Positions 2,496 through 59,897 of a stretch of 64,000 bases of DNA are shown here, piece after piece (position 1 is the first letter of the stretch; every line of letters begins with the position of its first letter). The DNA is taken from NCBI RefSeq assembly GCF_003991155.1, contig NZ_CP031293.1; one strand, given 5' to 3'. The position numbers were made by a program, and so were the translations under genes. This DNA comes from Escherichia coli. Lineage in GTDB: Bacteria > Pseudomonadota > Gammaproteobacteria > Enterobacterales > Enterobacteriaceae. Below the pieces are notes generated by a model. The model did no database searches, had not been told where the DNA came from, and saw only the letters and a program-made list of their open reading frames with translations.

Positions 2496-2605
2496 GGCAC
2501 AAAGATGCAATTTGACGCACCAATTAACCACGCACTAATCGTGACATTTTGAATCAATCATGTATTATTAGCATCACCATCCATTTGACACACCAAGGGA
2601 GACAA

Positions 2606-2953
2606 ATGAAAAAACTAGTATTTGCCGCTTTGTTAATTCCAGTGATGGGCCACGCCACAACCTTTTCCTGTAAAGCAATACAGGAAGGTCATATTGACTC
2701 GGGAAGTCAGAAAGTTTCTGTAGATTCAACTTTTGATATACAAGATAAAAAAATGACCATAAATCTTGGCGGTAAAACTTGGAGACTTGATTTGGTAGGT
2801 CAAAAAAGCATCGCAAAGATGTATGCTACACCTGACGGAGGGGTTGCAGCCACATACATTGACAATGGCAGTATACCGATATTTGTATTACGCCCTTCTA
2901 ATCCCGATGGGGAGATGGCTGTTTACACATTGAGTATGTGTTCTGAAGTATGA
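2606..2953 (+). CDS. Small exported protein of unknown function
   Basis: Start trimmed to MKKLVFAALLIPVMGHA, a signal-peptide-like N-terminus. No recognisable domain. Confidence 0.5.
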   Translation: MKKLVFAALLIPVMGHATTFSCKAIQEGHIDSGSQKVSVDSTFDIQDKKMTINLGGKTWRLDLVGQKSIAKMYATPDGGVAATYIDNGSIPIFVLRPSNPDGEMAVYTLSMCSEV

Positions 2954-3030
2954 TTGATCGGCGTGATATTCACGCCGTTTTTGGGGAAATTTGTATATTG
3001 AAAAATATAGAAATAGAACTTTTATCAAGC

Positions 3031-3756
3031 CTATTTATTAACAGGTAGTAATGTCAGATCGCCATAATGGGCTTGTCTATGGCAATTAGGACATAATGCA
3101 ATAGCATTTTCCACAGAGTCCTCCCCCCCCTTTGAAAGCCACTCAATATGATGAACTTCTAGAAATGGAGTACCATCTTCCTTTAGAAAAGGAGCATCTC
3201 GCTTACAATATTGACATTTTCCATTTGCACTCAAAAGAACTTCAGCAACTACATATGGGCTTCGTTTATAAACTCGTGTTGTTACTTCGATTAGTTCCGG
3301 GATTTTACTTTCTGTCGCTAAAATTTGCTTTCGTTCCACTGAAGATAATTTTGCAGCCGTCTCAACAGCTTCTTCGAAAACCGATTTTACTTGACGATAA
3401 CGCCACATCCCTTCTAAATCCTGGTATAATTCCCAAATACCGTGCACAGATGGTTGATAGATTTCAAAAATATTTCCACGCTTGAACAATCGGTCATACT
3501 TATGATGCCGATGAGTTACATCATCAGTTCGTCGGGCAGTTTTGTTGAAACTCCAGTAGCTCCGCTTACAATTAACTGTATTAGCAATTAAATTGAGCCA
3601 AGTATTATCTTTATAAGATGGAAATAGCTTTCTAAGATAATCATCTACCTGCTTAGCCGTTGCAGCCCCACCAAACTGATTAGCAATTATCTGTATGGTA
3701 ATAGCTCTTATCGGTTGATCGCCATACTTGTATTTTTTGCCTAAATTTTTAACCAT
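3031..3756 (-). CDS. McrA-like HNH endonuclease; candidate modification-dependent (type IV) restriction nuclease
   Basis: C-terminal CQYC...LEVHHIEWLSKGGEDSVENAIALCPNCHRQAH is an HNH motif with paired Cys zinc ligands. N-terminal roughly 150 aa unassigned. Confidence 0.6.
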   Translation of the reverse strand: MVKNLGKKYKYGDQPIRAITIQIIANQFGGAATAKQVDDYLRKLFPSYKDNTWLNLIANTVNCKRSYWSFNKTARRTDDVTHRHHKYDRLFKRGNIFEIYQPSVHGIWELYQDLEGMWRYRQVKSVFEEAVETAAKLSSVERKQILATESKIPELIEVTTRVYKRSPYVVAEVLLSANGKCQYCKRDAPFLKEDGTPFLEVHHIEWLSKGGEDSVENAIALCPNCHRQAHYGDLTLLPVNK

Positions 3757-3884
3757 AGAAGACTCACTAAGCCTAAATTCATCTTAAGTTATTATTGTAA
3801 ATTAGTTGTGAAAATTTTTGATCTCAGACAATAAAAATCTACAAATTATTAGCTGGTTATACACTAAGAAGGATACACGAATAA

Positions 3885-5192
3885 CTAAGTCTCCCAACAA
3901 AGACCATCGATCACATAACAAACGGTGGAAAGTGGGAATGTGTGCAGATAACGCTGGGTAATCCCTACTCCACTCTTTTCATGACCTACCACCTGTTGCA
4001 GATGCGCCAAATTACTCACCCAACCAGCTAAACAAGTAGAAATCATAGTATGCCGGAAACTATGCACCAAGCGCCGCTGCCCATAATCATCAAGATAAGG
4101 AATATCAAGCTGATCACGAACATCTGAAAGAACTTTACCTATCTTTGACATATTTCGACCTGAGACTTCCGAAAAGATTTTCTCTTTCCATTGGCGGTTA
4201 ACAAAATCCAGAAACCCCCACTCAATCAGTTTGGGATGAATCACTACCTGTCTTGTAGCATTCTCAGTTTTACCCAGCCTTCTTTCCGCGATCAGAAGAT
4301 AGTGCCGCTGGCTATCTTCATCAAATTTGATCTGCGACTTCTCCAGTTTAGCAATCTCACCTCTTCTGGCTCCTGTGTACGCCAACAACAAAGTGATCCA
4401 CTTCTGCCATCCATCAGGCTGCTTTAGTGCCCATCCTACAAATTTTTTCATTTCTGCTGCACTGTATGCACCAAACCTAGCTTTGGATGGTGCCGCTACT
4501 ATTCCATCAGTCGGAGACTTAGATAGAATATCTTTGTTTTCAGTCAGAAATGTTTTGAATAACGATTTGTAGATTTTAAGGTGCTTATGTACAGCCTCAG
4601 CACCAACTAAATCCTCTGGCAGCACATCATCACATTCGATTAGTTGCTGAATAGTCATTGACCTATACGGTTGCACTACACGCTTTGGTAAGTTTTCGAC
4701 AGTTTCCATTACTCGCTTAATATCTTGTTTGGTGATTGCCGTTACGTCTGTTTCTTTTCCCAAGACAACAAGCAATACCTCCATATAACGCTCATTTGCC
4801 ATTGAGATCGATTTTGTCCAATTTCGACCTCTTTCCTCCTTGTACATAGCCCACGCATCAGCAAGTGTTAGCACCTTTTCCGGTTTGGCTGGTGGTTGAA
4901 GCTGCAAAACTTCTTTAGAAATATTGTTCAATTGCTGAGGGAGTGGCAACGGAATCATTACGTTACGTGACGAAGCGATCAAGTTTGAAACAAACTTATT
5001 AAATTGTGGCAACGGAGTAGCGAGTGATTTAACGAAAGGAATGTGCGGAGTAAGGCCAATCATCAACGCCGATGCTTCGCGATAACTGTCAGTAAAAAGT
5101 GATTTTTTGTATATCCGACCATCCGAAAGCCGGATTTGTAGATAGTAATTACCGTTTCGCTGAAATGTGTATGGGAGAGTTCTTGACCTCAT
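3885..5192 (-). CDS. Tyrosine recombinase / integrase
   Basis: C-terminal catalytic signature (ARRGE, HSFRHT, VGHEK, TQRYLH). Start chosen at the internal Met (MRSRTLPY) because the first Met lacks an upstream ribosome-binding site. Confidence 0.8.
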   Translation of the reverse strand: MRSRTLPYTFQRNGNYYLQIRLSDGRIYKKSLFTDSYREASALMIGLTPHIPFVKSLATPLPQFNKFVSNLIASSRNVMIPLPLPQQLNNISKEVLQLQPPAKPEKVLTLADAWAMYKEERGRNWTKSISMANERYMEVLLVVLGKETDVTAITKQDIKRVMETVENLPKRVVQPYRSMTIQQLIECDDVLPEDLVGAEAVHKHLKIYKSLFKTFLTENKDILSKSPTDGIVAAPSKARFGAYSAAEMKKFVGWALKQPDGWQKWITLLLAYTGARRGEIAKLEKSQIKFDEDSQRHYLLIAERRLGKTENATRQVVIHPKLIEWGFLDFVNRQWKEKIFSEVSGRNMSKIGKVLSDVRDQLDIPYLDDYGQRRLVHSFRHTMISTCLAGWVSNLAHLQQVVGHEKSGVGITQRYLHTFPLSTVCYVIDGLCWET

Positions 5193-8336: not shown

Positions 8337-10817
8337 TTACTGGCAAATATAATTTTTACTTTCATCAATCTCTTTACCGAAGGTGATTGTGCATGAAAGC
8401 CCTTGTTGCTTATCAATTGCCACATTAACCGATGGCGGTACTTCATTGGTGCGAATAAATAACTGGCTTCCCTGGCCGACAACACCAATATTATGACCAT
8501 GGATATCATTGACTTCATAACCAAACGTTAATGGTTGCCCATCCGCTCTTAATGCTTTTATAAACCATGGCTTGCGCTGATCGGTATCAAAATTAACCAG
8601 TACAACCGCGCCGCGATAAGGGGCGGCAATTTTCCGGTTGCCACGTAATTCTGCTTCGCTATCGCTTTGTGACACATCCAACATCAGGTAATTTTCCCGA
8701 TAAGGTGTCATTCCGTCGTATACCACCACTCCATTACGGTTTGTTGTGCGATATTTTTGCCCATTGACATAAGCATCTTTAATTCCTGGCGCATTCATCA
8801 CAGCAAACGTTTCAGAAAGACGGTTTGCCAGATTAACGCCACCCGACCAGGCGACAATGCCCCCTGAAACACTGGCTCCAGCCTGTCGATAAGCACTCGA
8901 CTGACTATAACTGCCATTCACTGTCGCAACCGGCGCGTTCCAGGTTAAATTCGCCCCAGCTGTCGTTTCATTTCCCTGATACTGATAACTCAGGTTGACC
9001 CCATAGTTAAACTGATCCCGGCTTCCAACGGTTCCTGATAATCCCGTATTATTTGAGGCAACCCCCTGATCATCAAACGTCGTTGAGTTAGACATATATA
9101 TTTGCCGACGAGGCGTCGTAACGTCATCACCCCAATCAAAGGGAATCGATATAAAAATATTAAAACGTTTCTCTTCATGATGATTCTCGTCATAAGCCTG
9201 GCTTGCCGCGAGGGTATAGCTTATCCGTCGCAGGTTGTTGGAATAACTCAACTGATAATCCTTACTACTGCCGCTACGCCCCCAGTAATCTCGCCATAAC
9301 GTACTTAATGACACAGAACCCCAGCCTTCTGGCAATGACTGGCTCATATTAGCAGAAAAGCTATTTTTACGGCCAAAATCGTTCTGGTAATAATCGGCAA
9401 TGTCATAGATATCGTTTTCATCACGGCGATAATTATCTTTATTGTTTGCCCAAACGTGATCGTTAAATGTCCGGTAATCACGCGACGAATAACGCCAGGC
9501 TGCCAGACCAAAACGCGTCGACGTTTGGCTCACAAATTTGTTGTAGGCAATTTGATAACTTTGCCCGTCAAACACATCGCCGTTGTCTTGTTTACTATGC
9601 GACTTCGTGGCATCGACGGAAATGGCACCAATGCGTGTATTCCAGCCAGTCCCCAAAGTGAACGCGTAATAATTATTCGCGACCATCGATCCGCCATACA
9701 GCGTCAATAAGTTATTAAAACCATACTGATAACCCGCCTGAACAAAATCACTTTGTTTGCTCGCCCCTTCAATATGGCTACGACCTGCCGCAAAATCATA
9801 TTTCGACACGCCGGGTTGCAGCATATTCGGCACTGCTGCATAAGGCACCAGATAGGTGGTTACCGAACCGTCCGCCTCTTTCACGCTGACATCAAGATCT
9901 GCTCCACCACCGGCCAACTGCAAATCTGTAATCGCAAACGGGCCAGGAGGAACCTCTTTCTGATAAACCACAAAACCGTTCTGTTCAATAGTTACCAGCG
10001 CGTTACTCTGAGCAATCCCCTGCACCCGTGGCGTAAAATTCTGTTTCGAGTTAGGCAACATCTGCATATCACGAAACAACCGCACACCGCTGAAGCGAAC
10101 AGAATCAAAAATATCGCTTGATGTGTACATATCACCCACGCGAAGCGTGCCGAGAAGTTGGGCAAATCCACGTTCCAGATACAGGGTATTGCTTTTCCAC
10201 ACCCCTGGATTGCTATTTGTTTTACTGAAACTGGCATCAGAATGCAGTTGCCACCCCAGTAAGTTTAACCCGCTGTTAAAACGTACATATGTACTCTTGC
10301 TATTACCCGACGCTTTATAGTCGCTGTAATACTGACTCACATAATAAGAGGTATAAAACGCATTAATACCCCGCTCCCAGTTTTCCGGTGGAACATAGCC
10401 ACTTTCCAGTTCTTCCACCCACGCCTGCGGGACACTGAAATCGAGACGAAAAACTCCGATATCCCAGGTATAGCTCCCACCCTGAACAAGTTGCTCAAAT
10501 GTTAAACATTGCTTACCGCTGGCAAAGTTATCGGTATTAATGCCTAACCGCTTGATAATTTCCCTTGATAAACATGTTTCTTGCGGGTTGTCTTTAACAA
10601 TAATCTCATATTTCCCGCGCCATTGCTTATTGACATAAATATCGATGTCATACTGCCCCGGCAAGGGTTGATTATCATCAAGACGAATATTTGCAACCTG
10701 CTGGTCTTTCATTCCACCTATCATAAAATGGGTATCAAAGGTTTCTTCAGCTGCATAAGCTTCAATGCCGAGCAATAACGCTACGATTGCTGATGCAAGT
10801 GGGGTCATTCTCAACAT
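8337..10817 (-). CDS. yehB: Outer-membrane fimbrial usher YehB
   Basis: Start trimmed to MLRMTPLASAIVALLLGIEAYA, 826 aa; usher-family size and composition. Confidence 0.9.
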   Translation of the reverse strand: MLRMTPLASAIVALLLGIEAYAAEETFDTHFMIGGMKDQQVANIRLDDNQPLPGQYDIDIYVNKQWRGKYEIIVKDNPQETCLSREIIKRLGINTDNFASGKQCLTFEQLVQGGSYTWDIGVFRLDFSVPQAWVEELESGYVPPENWERGINAFYTSYYVSQYYSDYKASGNSKSTYVRFNSGLNLLGWQLHSDASFSKTNSNPGVWKSNTLYLERGFAQLLGTLRVGDMYTSSDIFDSVRFSGVRLFRDMQMLPNSKQNFTPRVQGIAQSNALVTIEQNGFVVYQKEVPPGPFAITDLQLAGGGADLDVSVKEADGSVTTYLVPYAAVPNMLQPGVSKYDFAAGRSHIEGASKQSDFVQAGYQYGFNNLLTLYGGSMVANNYYAFTLGTGWNTRIGAISVDATKSHSKQDNGDVFDGQSYQIAYNKFVSQTSTRFGLAAWRYSSRDYRTFNDHVWANNKDNYRRDENDIYDIADYYQNDFGRKNSFSANMSQSLPEGWGSVSLSTLWRDYWGRSGSSKDYQLSYSNNLRRISYTLAASQAYDENHHEEKRFNIFISIPFDWGDDVTTPRRQIYMSNSTTFDDQGVASNNTGLSGTVGSRDQFNYGVNLSYQYQGNETTAGANLTWNAPVATVNGSYSQSSAYRQAGASVSGGIVAWSGGVNLANRLSETFAVMNAPGIKDAYVNGQKYRTTNRNGVVVYDGMTPYRENYLMLDVSQSDSEAELRGNRKIAAPYRGAVVLVNFDTDQRKPWFIKALRADGQPLTFGYEVNDIHGHNIGVVGQGSQLFIRTNEVPPSVNVAIDKQQGLSCTITFGKEIDESKNYICQ

Positions 10818-12130: not shown

Positions 12131-12350
12131 AATATGTTCCTTAATAAAATTTATTTTTTGGTTGTTAAGAGTCTGTATCTCTTAGAAACAAATTTCTCAC
12201 ATCAAAAAAGTTGCCGCAATGTAAACATATTGTTTTATTGATTTAAAGCAAATTAACTATTGCAATATAAATACAACAAATACTTAAGCATATTAAATAT
12301 TTATCACATCTATTAATTAATGCAGATTTTTGTAAATGGTATTATTTATA

Positions 12351-53094: not shown

Positions 53095-54560
53095 AATTAA
53101 TTAATGTCATCAGGTCCGAAAATAACGAGAATAGTTCAGTCTCTCATCCTGTTGCGCTCCTGTCATGTGCATTGCTTCATATCATCACTGGCGCAAGGAG
53201 CGCGCAGGGGGCGGCCAGTCGCCGTCGCCCCCTGCACCCCCGGGCTCTGGCGAACAAAATCGCCGCTGCGCGGTACCCTCGGCTTATCCCTTGCTGCTAC
53301 CGGGTCGGGCGCGAGGTAACATATATGGACGCTCCCGGAATGCAATGCTTTCTTCAGTTATGTAATAAAACGGGTAGGTGCAGCCATATATCCGGTTTCT
53401 GATGGGATTTTTATCCCGAACCATGATGAAATCCGCCAGGCAGGTACCAATCATCCTCTACGGGCTAACTTGCCCTTGTTACCTCTCGGTGTATCCTGCC
53501 TGCGGTCTTACCTGTTTTGCCATCTTCTGAAGTCACCTGCACCTCCCAGGACGTTAACTTTTTTTCAGCACCTCGTCAGATTGACTGACCTTGTGTCAGG
53601 CGAGCTGCCGAGGTTGATATTCAGTATTGTGTGACAACATTGACCACATGATCCTCGCTGTTTTTGCCGCCATGGCGACAACAGCTACATTGTAGTGCTT
53701 CCGCTCAAGGAGTCCCTGAAGCCAGGAATTCTCCTCAACCGCGCCGTTTCGGTTGACCCAGGCGGTAAGTGCGCGTGCGCCGTGAACCAGCAGGTATCGG
53801 AAATATCCATCTCCACGTTTGCTGATCCCTCCCAGTTGCTGTTTCCCGCCGCTGGAATGTTCCTTTGGTGTCAGCCCCAGCCATGAAGCGAACTGCTTTG
53901 CGGTACTGAATTGTCGGGCATTACCCACTGCTGCTACCACATAAGTGGCCGTTAGCATGCCAACCCCCGGGATCTTGGCCATTCTCTGGCAGGCTTCCTG
54001 CGTTCTATACCAGGAGGCCAGAGCTTCTTCTACCTGTTTAACTTGTTCTTCAAGTTCCCGGATATGTTTAGACTGTCTGTAGATGCTGGTTCTGACAAAG
54101 GGAGATAAACCATTTTCGCCATCCTCCAGAATGGCTGGCAGCTCACGTGTTAAATGGCTTTGTCCGGCCGCAATCGTAATACCAAACTCAGCAAGTGTGG
54201 CTCTTAAACTATTGGCACAGGCAATCCGCTCACGGATAAGTATTCCCCGTTCAGTGTGTAACGCTAAAACGGCCTGCTGCTCTTCGGTTTTTATCTGAAC
54301 AAAACGCATATTCGGACGGGTTACCGCTTCGCAGATTGCTTCAGCATCTGCTGCATCCGTCTTGTTCGTTTTCACATAAGGCTTCACATACTGCGGAGGT
54401 ATGAGTTTTACCTCATGACCATAGCGGGTGAATAATCGCGCAAAATAATGACTGGATGAGCAGGCTTCCATGCCAATCAGACAAGGTTCCAGTTGAATCA
54501 CAAACTGAACAAACTTAGCCCGGGTGAGCTTTTTACGCAAAATAGTATGGCCTTCATGAT

Positions 54561-55810
<1,250 letters not shown>

Positions 55811-56221
55811 CCACTACAGATCGACACCATGAAGCTGAAAAACGTTCTTTGCCAGGTCGATACCAAGAGTTGATACTTTCATGTGGACGCTCCTAATTTT
55901 TCAGGACGTATTGCAACGATCCAGTCTGGTACTTTGATACCGTAAAATCTGGAGCGTCCATCTCATTATCCCTGTAAAACGCGCCCTCAGCCCACATCCA
56001 TGTGGGCTGCCCCGCCCTTCAGGGAACGCCTCGGCGATTTTGACGCCACCAACACCGGTGCGGTTTGTAATTAAAGCGCAAGAACATCTTTAAATGAAAA
56101 CGAATACTCTACTGCTCCTTATGCATAACATTTCCTTTTAATTGCAACTTTACTCGTCCTTCCGCTTTCAGTAGTGTGTCATCGCGCATTTCGACTTCAT
56201 CTTTGCAAGGACTGGGTTTTC

Positions 56222-57121
56222 ATGTTTTCTGGGCTGTTAATCATTCTGGTTCCCCTGATTGTGGGTTACCTCATTCCGCTTCGCCAAAAAGCTGCATTAA
56301 GAGTTATTAATCAGCTATTAAGCTGGATGGTTTACCTTATTCTCTTTTTTATGGGTATCAGTCTGGCGTTTCTCGATAACCTCGCCAGTAACCTGTTGGC
56401 GATTCTGCATTATTCTGCTGTCAGTATTACCGTTATTTTACTGTGTAATATTGCCGCCCTGATGTGGCTGGAGCGCGGCCTGCCATGGCGCAACCACCAT
56501 CATCAAGAAAAACTCCCGTCGCGTATTGCGATGGCGCTGGAGTCGCTAAAACTGTGCGGCGTAGTAGTGATTGGTTTTGCCATTGGCCTGAGTGGACTGG
56601 CTTTCTTACAACATGCGACCGAAGCCAGTGAATACACCTTAATTCTGCTACTTTTCCTCGTCGGTATTCAGTTGCGCAATAATGGCATGACCTTAAAGCA
56701 GATTGTCCTTAATCGCCGGGGAATGATTGTCGCCGTGGTGGTGGTTGCCAGTTCATTAATTGGTGGTTTAATTAACGCCTTTATTCTTGATCTTCCCATC
56801 AATACCGCGCTGGCAATGGCCTCCGGTTTCGGCTGGTATTCTCTTTCCGGTATTTTATTGACCGAATCTTTTGGTCCGGTAATCGGGAGCGCGGCGTTTT
56901 TTAATGATCTGGCCCGTGAGCTGATTGCTATTATGTTGATCCCTGGGCTGATTCGCCGTAGCCGCTCGACTGCACTGGGCTTATGTGGTGCGACGTCGAT
57001 GGATTTCACCCTGCCCGTTCTTCAACGTACTGGCGGGCTGGATATGGTCCCGGCGGCGATTGTTCACGGTTTTATTCTTAGCCTGTTAGTGCCGATCCTC
57101 ATCGCCTTTTTCTCTGCATAA
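56222..57121 (+). CDS. lysO: Lysine exporter LysO (YbjE)
   Basis: Start trimmed to MFSGLLIILVPLIVGYLIPL, 299 aa, multi-pass membrane protein. Confidence 0.9.
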   Translation: MFSGLLIILVPLIVGYLIPLRQKAALRVINQLLSWMVYLILFFMGISLAFLDNLASNLLAILHYSAVSITVILLCNIAALMWLERGLPWRNHHHQEKLPSRIAMALESLKLCGVVVIGFAIGLSGLAFLQHATEASEYTLILLLFLVGIQLRNNGMTLKQIVLNRRGMIVAVVVVASSLIGGLINAFILDLPINTALAMASGFGWYSLSGILLTESFGPVIGSAAFFNDLARELIAIMLIPGLIRRSRSTALGLCGATSMDFTLPVLQRTGGLDMVPAAIVHGFILSLLVPILIAFFSA

Positions 57122-57154
57122 TACCTCTCTGGCGGTAGATCCCTGCCGCCAAAA

Positions 57155-57168
57155 TTGCGCTAAATCAA
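57155..57168. promoter_or_regulatory. Candidate FNR-like site upstream of hcp
   Basis: TTGCGctaaATCAA resembles TTGAT-N4-ATCAA with two mismatches in the left half. Low confidence. Confidence 0.25.
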
Positions 57169-57264
57169 TCTCCCCTAAAGTTGCATTAAAAATCTCTTTT
57201 ATCCCCGCGTTAAGCGTCTTAACCTTAAACATGTATATTAAATATAACTTTAAAAGGTGTGATC

Positions 57265-58917
57265 ATGTTTTGTGTGCAATGTGAACAAACTATCCGTACT
57301 CCGGCAGGAAACGGCTGCTCATACGCGCAGGGGATGTGTGGTAAAACGGCGGAAACCTCTGACCTTCAGGATTTACTCATCGCGACGCTGCAAGGGCTTT
57401 CGGCCTGGGCAGTGAAAGCACGTGAATACGGCATCATCAACCACGATGTAGACAGCTTTGCGCCACGTGCCTTTTTCTCAACCCTGACCAACGTTAACTT
57501 CGATTCTCCGCGTATTGTCGGCTACGCTCGTGAAGCGATTGCCCTGCGCGAGGCGCTGAAAGCACAGTGCCTGGCTGTAGATGCCAACGCCCGCGTCGAT
57601 AACCCGATGGCTGACCTGCAACTGGTGAGTGACGATCTCGGCGAGCTGCAACGTCAGGCGGCGGAATTTACTCCCAATAAAGATAAAGCTGCGATTGGCG
57701 AAAACATTCTCGGCCTGCGTCTGCTGTGCCTGTATGGCCTGAAAGGTGCGGCGGCCTATATGGAACACGCACACGTTCTCGGTCAATACGACAACGATAT
57801 TTATGCCCAGTACCATAAAATCATGGCGTGGCTGGGGACCTGGCCTGCCGATATGAACGCGCTTCTTGAGTGTTCAATGGAAATCGGCCAGATGAACTTC
57901 AAAGTGATGAGCATTCTGGATGCAGGCGAAACCAGTAAATACGGTCACCCGACGCCAACCCAGGTCAACGTCAAAGCGACGGCAGGTAAATGCATTCTGA
58001 TTTCCGGTCACGATCTCAAAGATCTCTACAACCTGCTGGAACAGACCGAAGGCACGGGCGTTAATGTCTACACCCACGGTGAAATGCTGCCTGCGCATGG
58101 CTACCCGGAGCTGCGTAAATTCAAGCATCTGGTCGGTAACTACGGCAGCGGCTGGCAGAATCAGCAAGTGGAGTTCGCTCGTTTCCCTGGCCCCATCGTG
58201 ATGACCTCGAACTGCATCATCGACCCAACCGTAGGCGCTTATGACGATCGTATCTGGACCCGCAGCATCGTTGGCTGGCCGGGTGTGCGTCATCTGGATG
58301 GCGAAGATTTCTCTGCGGTCATCGCCCAGGCGCAACAGATGGCGGGCTTCCCGTACAGCGAAATTCCGCACCTGATCACCGTGGGCTTTGGTCGCCAGAC
58401 ACTGCTTGGCGCAGCCGATATGCTGATTGATCTGGTGAGCCGTGAAAAACTGCGTCATATCTTCCTGCTTGGCGGCTGTGACGGCGCACGCGGCGAGCGT
58501 CACTACTTCACCGATTTCGCCACCAGCGTGCCGGATGACTGCCTGATCCTGACCCTCGCTTGCGGTAAATATCGCTTTAATAAACTTGAGTTTGGCGATA
58601 TCGAAGGTCTGCCGCGTCTGGTAGATGCTGGTCAGTGTAACGATGCTTACTCAGCAATTATTCTGGCGGTAACGCTGGCAGAGAAACTGGGCTGCGGAGT
58701 CAACGATCTGCCGCTGTCGCTGGTGCTCTCCTGGTTTGAACAGAAAGCGATTGTCATTCTGCTGACGCTGCTTTCTCTGGGTGTGAAAAATATCGTCACC
58801 GGCCCGACTGCACCTGGTTTCCTGACACCAGACCTGCTGGCGGTGCTGAACGAGAAATTCGGCCTGCGTTCTATCACCACTGTTGAAGAAGACATGAAGC
58901 AACTGTTGAGCGCGTAA
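57265..58917 (+). CDS. hcp: Hybrid-cluster protein (hydroxylamine reductase) Hcp
   Basis: Start trimmed to MFCVQCEQT, 550 aa; N-terminal Cys cluster. Confidence 0.95.
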
Positions 58918-58928
58918 GGAGTTTGTCG

Positions 58929-59897
58929 ATGACGATGCCAACGAATCAATGCCCGTGGCGGATGCAGGTTCATCACATTACGCAAGAAACGCCGGATGTG
59001 TGGACGATTTCCCTGATTTGCCACGATTACTACCCATATCGCGCCGGGCAATATGCACTGGTCAGCGTGCGTAACTCAGCGGAAACGCTGCGTGCTTACA
59101 CCATTTCCTCCACGCCAGGCGTGAGTGAATACATTACCCTGACTGTGCGGCGGATTGATGACGGTGTCGGCTCCCAGTGGCTGACGCGCGATGTAAAACG
59201 CGGTGATTATCTCTGGCTTTCGGACGCGATGGGGGAATTTACCTGCGACGATAAAGCAGAAGATAAATTCCTGTTGCTGGCGGCAGGCTGCGGCGTTACG
59301 CCGATTATGTCGATGCGTCGCTGGCTGGCGAAGAACCGTCCACAGGCCGATGTGCAGGTGATCTACAACGTGCGTACGCCGCAGGATGTGATTTTCGCCG
59401 ATGAGTGGCGTAACTATCCGGTAACGCTGGTGGCGGAAAATAACGTTACCGAAGGCTTTATCGCTGGTCGTCTCACTCGCGAACTGCTGGCAGGTGTCCC
59501 TGATTTAGCCTCACGTACCGTGATGACCTGTGGCCCTGCTCCATATATGGATTGGGTAGAGCAGGAAGTGAAAGCGCTCGGCGTGACGCGTTTCTTTAAA
59601 GAGAAATTCTTCACCCCAGTAGCGGAAGCGGCGACCAGCGGTCTGAAATTCACCAAACTGCAACCGGCACGAGAATTTTACGCCCCGGTTGGCACCACGC
59701 TACTGGAGGCGCTGGAAAGCAATAACGTTCCGGTTGTCGCCGCCTGCCGTGCAGGTGTTTGCGGCTGCTGTAAGACAAAAGTGGTTTCCGGTGAATATAC
59801 GGTGAGCAGCACAATGACGCTGACCGACGCCGAAATCGCTGAAGGTTACGTGCTGGCCTGCTCCTGCCATCCGCAGGGAGATTTGGTTCTCGCATAA
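58929..59897 (+). CDS. hcr: NADH oxidoreductase Hcr (FAD and 2Fe-2S)
   Basis: Start trimmed to MTMPTNQCPW, 322 aa; C-terminal ferredoxin-type CRAGVCGCC motif. Confidence 0.93.
   Translation: MTMPTNQCPWRMQVHHITQETPDVWTISLICHDYYPYRAGQYALVSVRNSAETLRAYTISSTPGVSEYITLTVRRIDDGVGSQWLTRDVKRGDYLWLSDAMGEFTCDDKAEDKFLLLAAGCGVTPIMSMRRWLAKNRPQADVQVIYNVRTPQDVIFADEWRNYPVTLVAENNVTEGFIAGRLTRELLAGVPDLASRTVMTCGPAPYMDWVEQEVKALGVTRFFKEKFFTPVAEAATSGLKFTKLQPAREFYAPVGTTLLEALESNNVPVVAACRAGVCGCCKTKVVSGEYTVSSTMTLTDAEIAEGYVLACSCHPQGDLVLA

Follow-up and report, generated by a model that had tools for sequence, protein, structure and literature searches.

The 14-bp sequence TTGCGCTAAATCAA, which lies on the + strand at exactly 57155–57168 of a 64,000-nucleotide stretch of Escherichia coli DNA (hereafter the window), is very probably, at roughly 95% in our estimate, the operator bound by FNR, the oxygen-sensing activator, at the promoter of hcp-hcr. 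It is the reverse complement of TTGATTTAGCGCAA, the hcp FNR site of Myers et al. (2013), and its box is retained upstream of hcp throughout the Enterobacteriaceae that we compared. The genes concerned form a nitric-oxide defense operon that FNR switches on in the absence of oxygen, and they consist of hcp, encoding the hybrid cluster protein (57265–58917, + strand, from the list of open reading frames and the RefSeq annotation of strain 2016C-3878), and, as the second gene, hcr, encoding an NADH oxidoreductase (58929–59897, + strand, from annotation mapped onto the window). FNR control of hcp-hcr via this box is already known from the literature and from regulon databases. The preliminary description of this DNA therefore picked a true regulatory site from the raw sequence, and in doing so it adds no new biology.

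The FNR box in the hcp control region

The reading frame of hcp opens with the ATG at 57265 (MFCVQCEQ...), and its control region is the whole of the 143-bp gap between this codon and the stop codon of lysO (57121), the annotated gene that bounds it upstream. The center of the FNR box, at 57161.5, falls 103.5 bp before the ATG, and its 3' end falls 97 bp before it, so that the FNR-type 14-mer reported about 100 bp before the hcp start is present at that place. The box has the layout TTGCG-CTAA-ATCAA, in which ATCAA, on the right, matches the FNR half-site perfectly and TTGCG, on the left, has other bases than TTGAT at positions 4 and 5; these are the two left-hand mismatches that had been pointed out from the sequence.

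The published data on this site are extensive. Table S6 of Myers et al. (2013; PMC3688515) lists TTGATTTAGCGCAA at hcp with a PatSer score of 13.11 and an ln p of -11.6, which passes the precision-recall cut-off of -10.75, and the site lies under an FNR ChIP-seq/ChIP-chip peak that was found by all callers and is free of masking by nucleoid proteins. Table 1 of that study places the site at -72.5 from the transcript start and counts hcp-hcr among the operons that FNR activates directly, with reference to Filenko, Browning and Cole (2005), and its expression table carries values of 0.43 (hcp) and 0.40 (hcr) with the operon classed as "Activated". The reading of the 14-mer as the hcp FNR site is supported by each of these points: the same sequence, the ChIP-seq peak, the position at -72.5, and direct activation of hcp-hcr by FNR. 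The description of the site as weak, on the other hand, does not hold, as the box is bound in vivo and is nearly invariant across about 30 genera, though it scores low among bound sites.

The window and K-12 agree closely in this region. The hcp-hcr FNR site of K-12 is the identical 14-mer at the identical distance of 103.5 bp from the ATG, accompanied by the same NarL/NarP-like and NsrR boxes, and the few base differences between the two promoters all fall outside the regulatory boxes (identity to MG1655 is about 97% here). Nothing of substance differs between them; the window comes from another E. coli lineage and has IS elements about 1.3 kb upstream, which leave the promoter untouched. In K-12, reporter tests of the mutated box have reportedly been carried out already.

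Matrix score and the expectation by chance

Mismatch counts fail to separate the FNR box from chance, since TTGATNNNNATCAA is matched with two or fewer mismatches 45 times in the window, against 36 ± 6 times in shuffled sequence. We therefore used matrix scoring, for which a symmetric log-odds matrix was derived from the 62 FNR sites that Myers et al. (2013) list with a ChIP-seq peak in Table S6, with hcp left out. Under this leave-hcp-out matrix, the hcp box scores 13.19 bits and ranks third over all positions of the 64-kb window, which is not the poor score that would have counted against it. The per-position probability of such a score in an iid model is about 1.5e-5, and the number of matches expected by chance at the hcp score is about 1 per 64-kb window and about 0.002 per 143-bp lysO-hcp intergenic region. 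No better site exists elsewhere in the hcp promoter, another possibility raised against the box beforehand: the runner-up 14-mer between 57100 and 57264 reaches only 5.15 bits, 8 bits below the box, and the interval contains nothing else that resembles an FNR site. Candidates for a second FNR box in the hcp promoter, including TTGCATTAAAAATC at 57181, were rejected on the same grounds, none of them scoring above 5.15 bits.

Taken by themselves, the mismatch counts, which are no higher than in shuffles, and the single match of this score expected in 64 kb would be compatible with a sequence that resembles the FNR consensus by accident and has no regulatory role. That reading is at odds with the ChIP-seq peak and the FNR-dependent expression in K-12, with an invariant box in about 30 genera whose intergenic flanks diverge, and with a constant spacing to the core promoter (see below), and we regard it as already effectively refuted. 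Conservation in 78 species and published ChIP-seq together put the FNR box well beyond chance.

Among the sites used for training, 56 of 62 score above the hcp box, which puts it toward the low end of the bound sites. It falls there because positions 4 and 5 carry non-preferred bases; in bound sites, C occurs at position 4 with a frequency of 3% and G at position 5 with a frequency of 9%.

The two matches that score higher in the window lie at 10668–10681 and 12238–12251 (TTGATTATCATCAA and TTGATTTAAAGCAA). These matches are the equivalents of the yehB and yehD sites, which are predicted, not FNR-bound, and covered by H-NS (Myers et al. 2013; PMC3688515).

Conservation across the Enterobacteriaceae

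A genome scan with the Hcp protein recovered 80 loci in the Enterobacteriaceae, the family to which the comparison was limited, from about 30 genera and at 89–99% protein identity, and 78 of these loci had enough upstream DNA for analysis. In all 78 of these other species, this same box gives the best match to the FNR matrix within 260 bp upstream of the ATG, at a distance of 101.5–112.5 bp from the start codon. The box is identical to the letter in 66 of the 78, and the only variants are TTGAGC... (2 species), ...GTTAA... (6), and ...CTATATC... (2). Each of its 14 bases is 92–100% conserved in a MAFFT alignment, in which many bases between 57175 and 57222 are merely 4–60% conserved, with bases near the box going down to 4–40%. 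Beyond this variable stretch is an invariant core box, CTTAAACATGTATAT (57224–57238), of the core promoter/NsrR region. Despite indels in other parts of the region, the FNR box and the core box are separated by 69 bp in 76 of the 79 sequences, with 68 bp in the other 3, and the interval from the core box to the ATG runs from 39 to 50 bp. A spacing that stays constant across a divergent spacer sequence matches the requirement of an activator that must sit on a defined face of the helix.

Two readings that keep the box functional and assign it another role have to be weighed here, namely that it is a repressor site for FNR or that it serves lysO instead of hcp. The second draws on the position of the box, which starts just 34 bp past the lysO stop codon. 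Being downstream of lysO on the same strand, however, the FNR box cannot be a promoter element of that gene, and it is from the core promoter of hcp, and not from lysO, that its distance has been conserved. A repressor role disagrees with the classification of hcp-hcr as activated (Myers et al. 2013) and with a location at -72.5, where the box would not overlap polymerase. Both roles are very improbable, and an activator site for hcp is the reading that we retain.

Comparable arrangements have been described before. In an alignment of eight enterobacterial hcp upstream regions, Rodionov et al. (2005; PMC1274295) found a conserved upstream FNR-like box, and they assigned a downstream inverted repeat to NsrR. 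The boxes of HcpR, DNR, and NnrR in the same study are likewise palindromes of the CRP/FNR family that, in other bacteria, precede hcp or denitrification genes, and the NnrR consensus, TTGCG-N4-CGCAA, resembles the left half of the hcp box, TTGCG, while the right half of the hcp box is the perfect FNR ATCAA. In enterobacteria, hcp is under FNR and NsrR instead of HcpR, DNR, or NnrR (Rodionov et al. 2005; PMC1274295), and the likeness of TTGCG to the NnrR half-site is probably coincidental. In Shewanella, hcp was reported to depend on EtrA, yet it has no recognizable box there. The "hcp" of Dickeya and Pectobacterium is a type VI secretion protein and is irrelevant to the hybrid cluster protein.

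A natural variant of the promoter was seen in E. coli O169:H41 strain 2014EL-1345-2 (L083, locus 2585–3990), where an insertion of IS421, an IS4-like element, separates the FNR box from the hcp core promoter. In this strain, hcp should be uncoupled from FNR.

Core promoter and mode of activation

Promoters activated by FNR and CRP follow established rules, among them class I activation through the C-terminal domain of the RNA polymerase alpha subunit (alpha-CTD), for which FNR occupies positions on a fixed helical face (-61.5, -71.5/-72.5, -82.5, and so on). The permitted class I positions are reportedly those described by Wing, Williams and Busby in 1995. The hcp box at -72.5 lies one helical turn upstream of the canonical class I position of -61.5, and this location, which takes its transcript start from the literature, fits a class I site together with the constant spacing of 69 or 68 bp.

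Adding the published -72.5 (Myers et al. 2013, Table 1) to the center of the box puts the putative transcript start of hcp at 57234 on the + strand, with a leader of 31 nt. From this start, we infer a -10 element, TAACCT, at 57220–57225 (+ strand), in which T1, A2, and T6 are 99–100% conserved, and 17 bp upstream of it a poor -35 element, TTTTAT, at 57197–57202 (+ strand), where the sigma-70 scan gave no match. The sequence CTTT (57196–57199), which adjoins the putative -35, is 96–100% conserved. A scan for the sigma-70 consensus over 57000–57320 found nothing, a null result that is uninformative because it is expected of an activator-dependent promoter. Myers et al. (2013; PMC3688515) observed no sigma-70 ChIP peak at hcp and cited a reported dependence on sigma-E, so that the polymerase holoenzyme acting at hcp may be that of sigma-70 or that of sigma-E.

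Natural promoters activated by FNR are mostly of class II, and among those with a known start, 19 of 23 have their site at -41.5 ± 4 (Myers et al. 2013; PMC3688515); hcp belongs to the small number with an upstream site. Comparable class I promoters are, for example, those of ydjX (-60.5) and ackA (-74.5) (Myers et al. 2013, Table 1). Features that hcp has in common with such promoters are a single FNR box far ahead of the -35, an offset of about one helical turn from -61.5, and a poor core promoter; the alpha-CTD contact at hcp is presumed from the layout of the promoter.

These features show how the promoter very probably works. In the absence of oxygen, a dimer of [4Fe-4S] FNR binds TTGCG-CTAA-ATCAA centered at -72.5 and from there recruits RNA polymerase to a core promoter with a poor -35 and a poor -10. 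Judging from the architecture, its contact would most likely be with the alpha subunit C-terminal domain, as in class I activation, which works through FNR activating region 1 and the alpha-CTD of sigma-70 polymerase. The candidate NarL/NarP site, some 32 bp upstream of the FNR box, would add induction by nitrate and nitrite, and an NsrR operator over the transcript start holds the promoter closed for as long as NsrR has not been inactivated by nitric oxide.

The NsrR operator and a candidate NarL/NarP site

The order of a NarL/NarP site, an FNR site at -72.5, and an NsrR operator is the known layout of this promoter. A candidate NarL/NarP site of the 7-2-7 type, TACCTCT-ct-GGCGGTA, lies at 57122–57137 (either strand) and is centered at 57129.5. 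In 46 of the 79 species, its left heptamer is an exact match to TACYYMT, and the variation falls for the most part at degenerate positions; its right heptamer, GGCGGTA, is present in 67 of 79. The heptamer consensus and the position of the hcp site at -104.5 are reportedly those given in papers from the Cole and Busby laboratories. Induction of hcp by nitrate and nitrite depends on NarL and NarP, as cited by Rodionov et al. (2005; PMC1274295).

The NsrR operator is an 11-1-11 inverted repeat, AACATGTATAT-T-AAATATAACTT, that occupies 57228–57250 (either strand) and overlaps the transcript start; most of its columns are 95–100% conserved in the alignment, and its half-sites are known from ChIP-seq. 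In E. coli CFT073, the NsrR ChIP-seq peak has its summit 22 bp before the hcp start codon, and the motifs listed under it are AACATGTATAT, AAGTTATATTT, and AAGTTGCATTA (Mehta et al. 2015; PMC5320621). We located these in the window at 57228–57238, at 57240–57250 on the reverse strand, and at 57178–57188, respectively. The last of them is an additional, third NsrR-type half-site of 11 bp, on the + strand, downstream of the FNR box and upstream of the core promoter. In the alignment it stands out in part as an island of conserved bases, and its K-12 counterpart is AAGTTGCATGA.

A conserved hairpin downstream of lysO

The bases directly upstream of the FNR box are also conserved, which is accounted for by a hairpin, UGGCGGUAG-AUCC-CUGCCGCCA, at 57130–57151 (+ strand). 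It begins 9 nt past the lysO stop codon and stops 4 nt short of the FNR box, and the right NarL/NarP heptamer is contained in its left arm. Folding gives an energy of -16.5 kcal/mol (z -3.2), and across 72 distinct enterobacterial sequences 95% of the cells are paired, in a stem of 8–9 bp with a variable loop of 4–6 nt. Covariation supports the pairing as well, with one position occupied by U-G in 40 sequences, U-A in 24, and C-G in 6, and another by G-C in 60, G-U in 4, A-U in 3, and C-G in 2. The frequent U-G pair fits an RNA made from the sense strand of lysO. An intrinsic-terminator scan of 57000–57320 returned nothing, and the hairpin has no U tract, so that it is not a canonical terminator; a scan of 56900–57400 against Rfam matched no family. 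Our guess is that it acts as a stabilizer of the lysO 3' end or as a non-canonical terminator.

Genomic surroundings

The region was matched in 5,424 of 5,426 complete E. coli genomes, and the RefSeq gene order is lysO - hcp - hcr - poxB - ltaE. Over 12,601 bases, the window differs from strain 2016C-3878 at a single base. Upstream of lysO (ybjE; 56222–57121, + strand) are two transposase genes, one of the IS110 family at 53596–54609 on the - strand and one of the IS3 family at 54633–55810 on the + strand. Beyond these IS genes lie yohP, mdtQ, and yohF, which in K-12 are far from hcp, and the junction is near 55968. This points to an IS-associated chromosomal rearrangement that is common to the window and strain 2016C-3878.

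The aqpZ-ybjD segment of K-12, with its FNR site TTGATTTAGGGCAA, is absent from the window. In K-12, this aqpZ/ybjD intergenic site (NC_000913.3, around 916201) has one base that is different from the hcp site TTGATTTAGCGCAA and lies about 2.3 kb from it. The near-identity of the two sites is probably a coincidence.

The non-consensus half-site

Positions 4–6 and 9 of the FNR box (within 57158–57163) are 92–100% conserved in the 78 species, which is beyond what the FNR matrix leads one to expect. In that matrix, positions 4 and 5 of the box carry disfavored bases, and the spacer positions 6 and 9 are nearly uninformative (about 0.07 bits). A change of C to A at position 4 would add 5 bits to the score, yet it was found in just 2 of the 78 species; conversion of the whole of TTGCG to TTGAT is predicted to bring the score from 13.2 to 21.2 bits. 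One way to account for such a pattern is that a second factor, or a need for a certain DNA shape, overlaps the FNR box, FNR then being one of two ligands; another is that the half-site is kept at a tuned, sub-maximal affinity. The conservation of the disfavored and uninformative positions and the near absence of the score-raising change speak for an added constraint of this sort. Against it stand the lack of any second motif that we could recognize over the box and the fact that FNR occupancy alone already accounts for 10 of the 14 positions, and we hold the idea to be a rather unlikely one. The consensus sequences of CRP, IHF, NsrR, and NarL were compared by eye with the 14-mer, and none of them fit.

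The FNR operator itself is a known element, and what is mildly novel is that a sub-optimal FNR site has been kept with every base in place, including the two "wrong" ones. Along with the constant spacing to the core promoter and the covarying hairpin after lysO, this could prompt a small experiment. A more speculative proposal, to which we give a low probability, combines this with the hairpin: the near-invariant TTGCG and spacer would reflect selected sub-maximal affinity, or an overlapping second ligand or DNA shape, and the hairpin would couple lysO to the hcp promoter. If this is true, the hairpin could tie the termination or stability of the lysO transcript to the architecture of the hcp promoter, and sub-maximal affinity for FNR could set the oxygen or nitric oxide threshold at which hcp responds.
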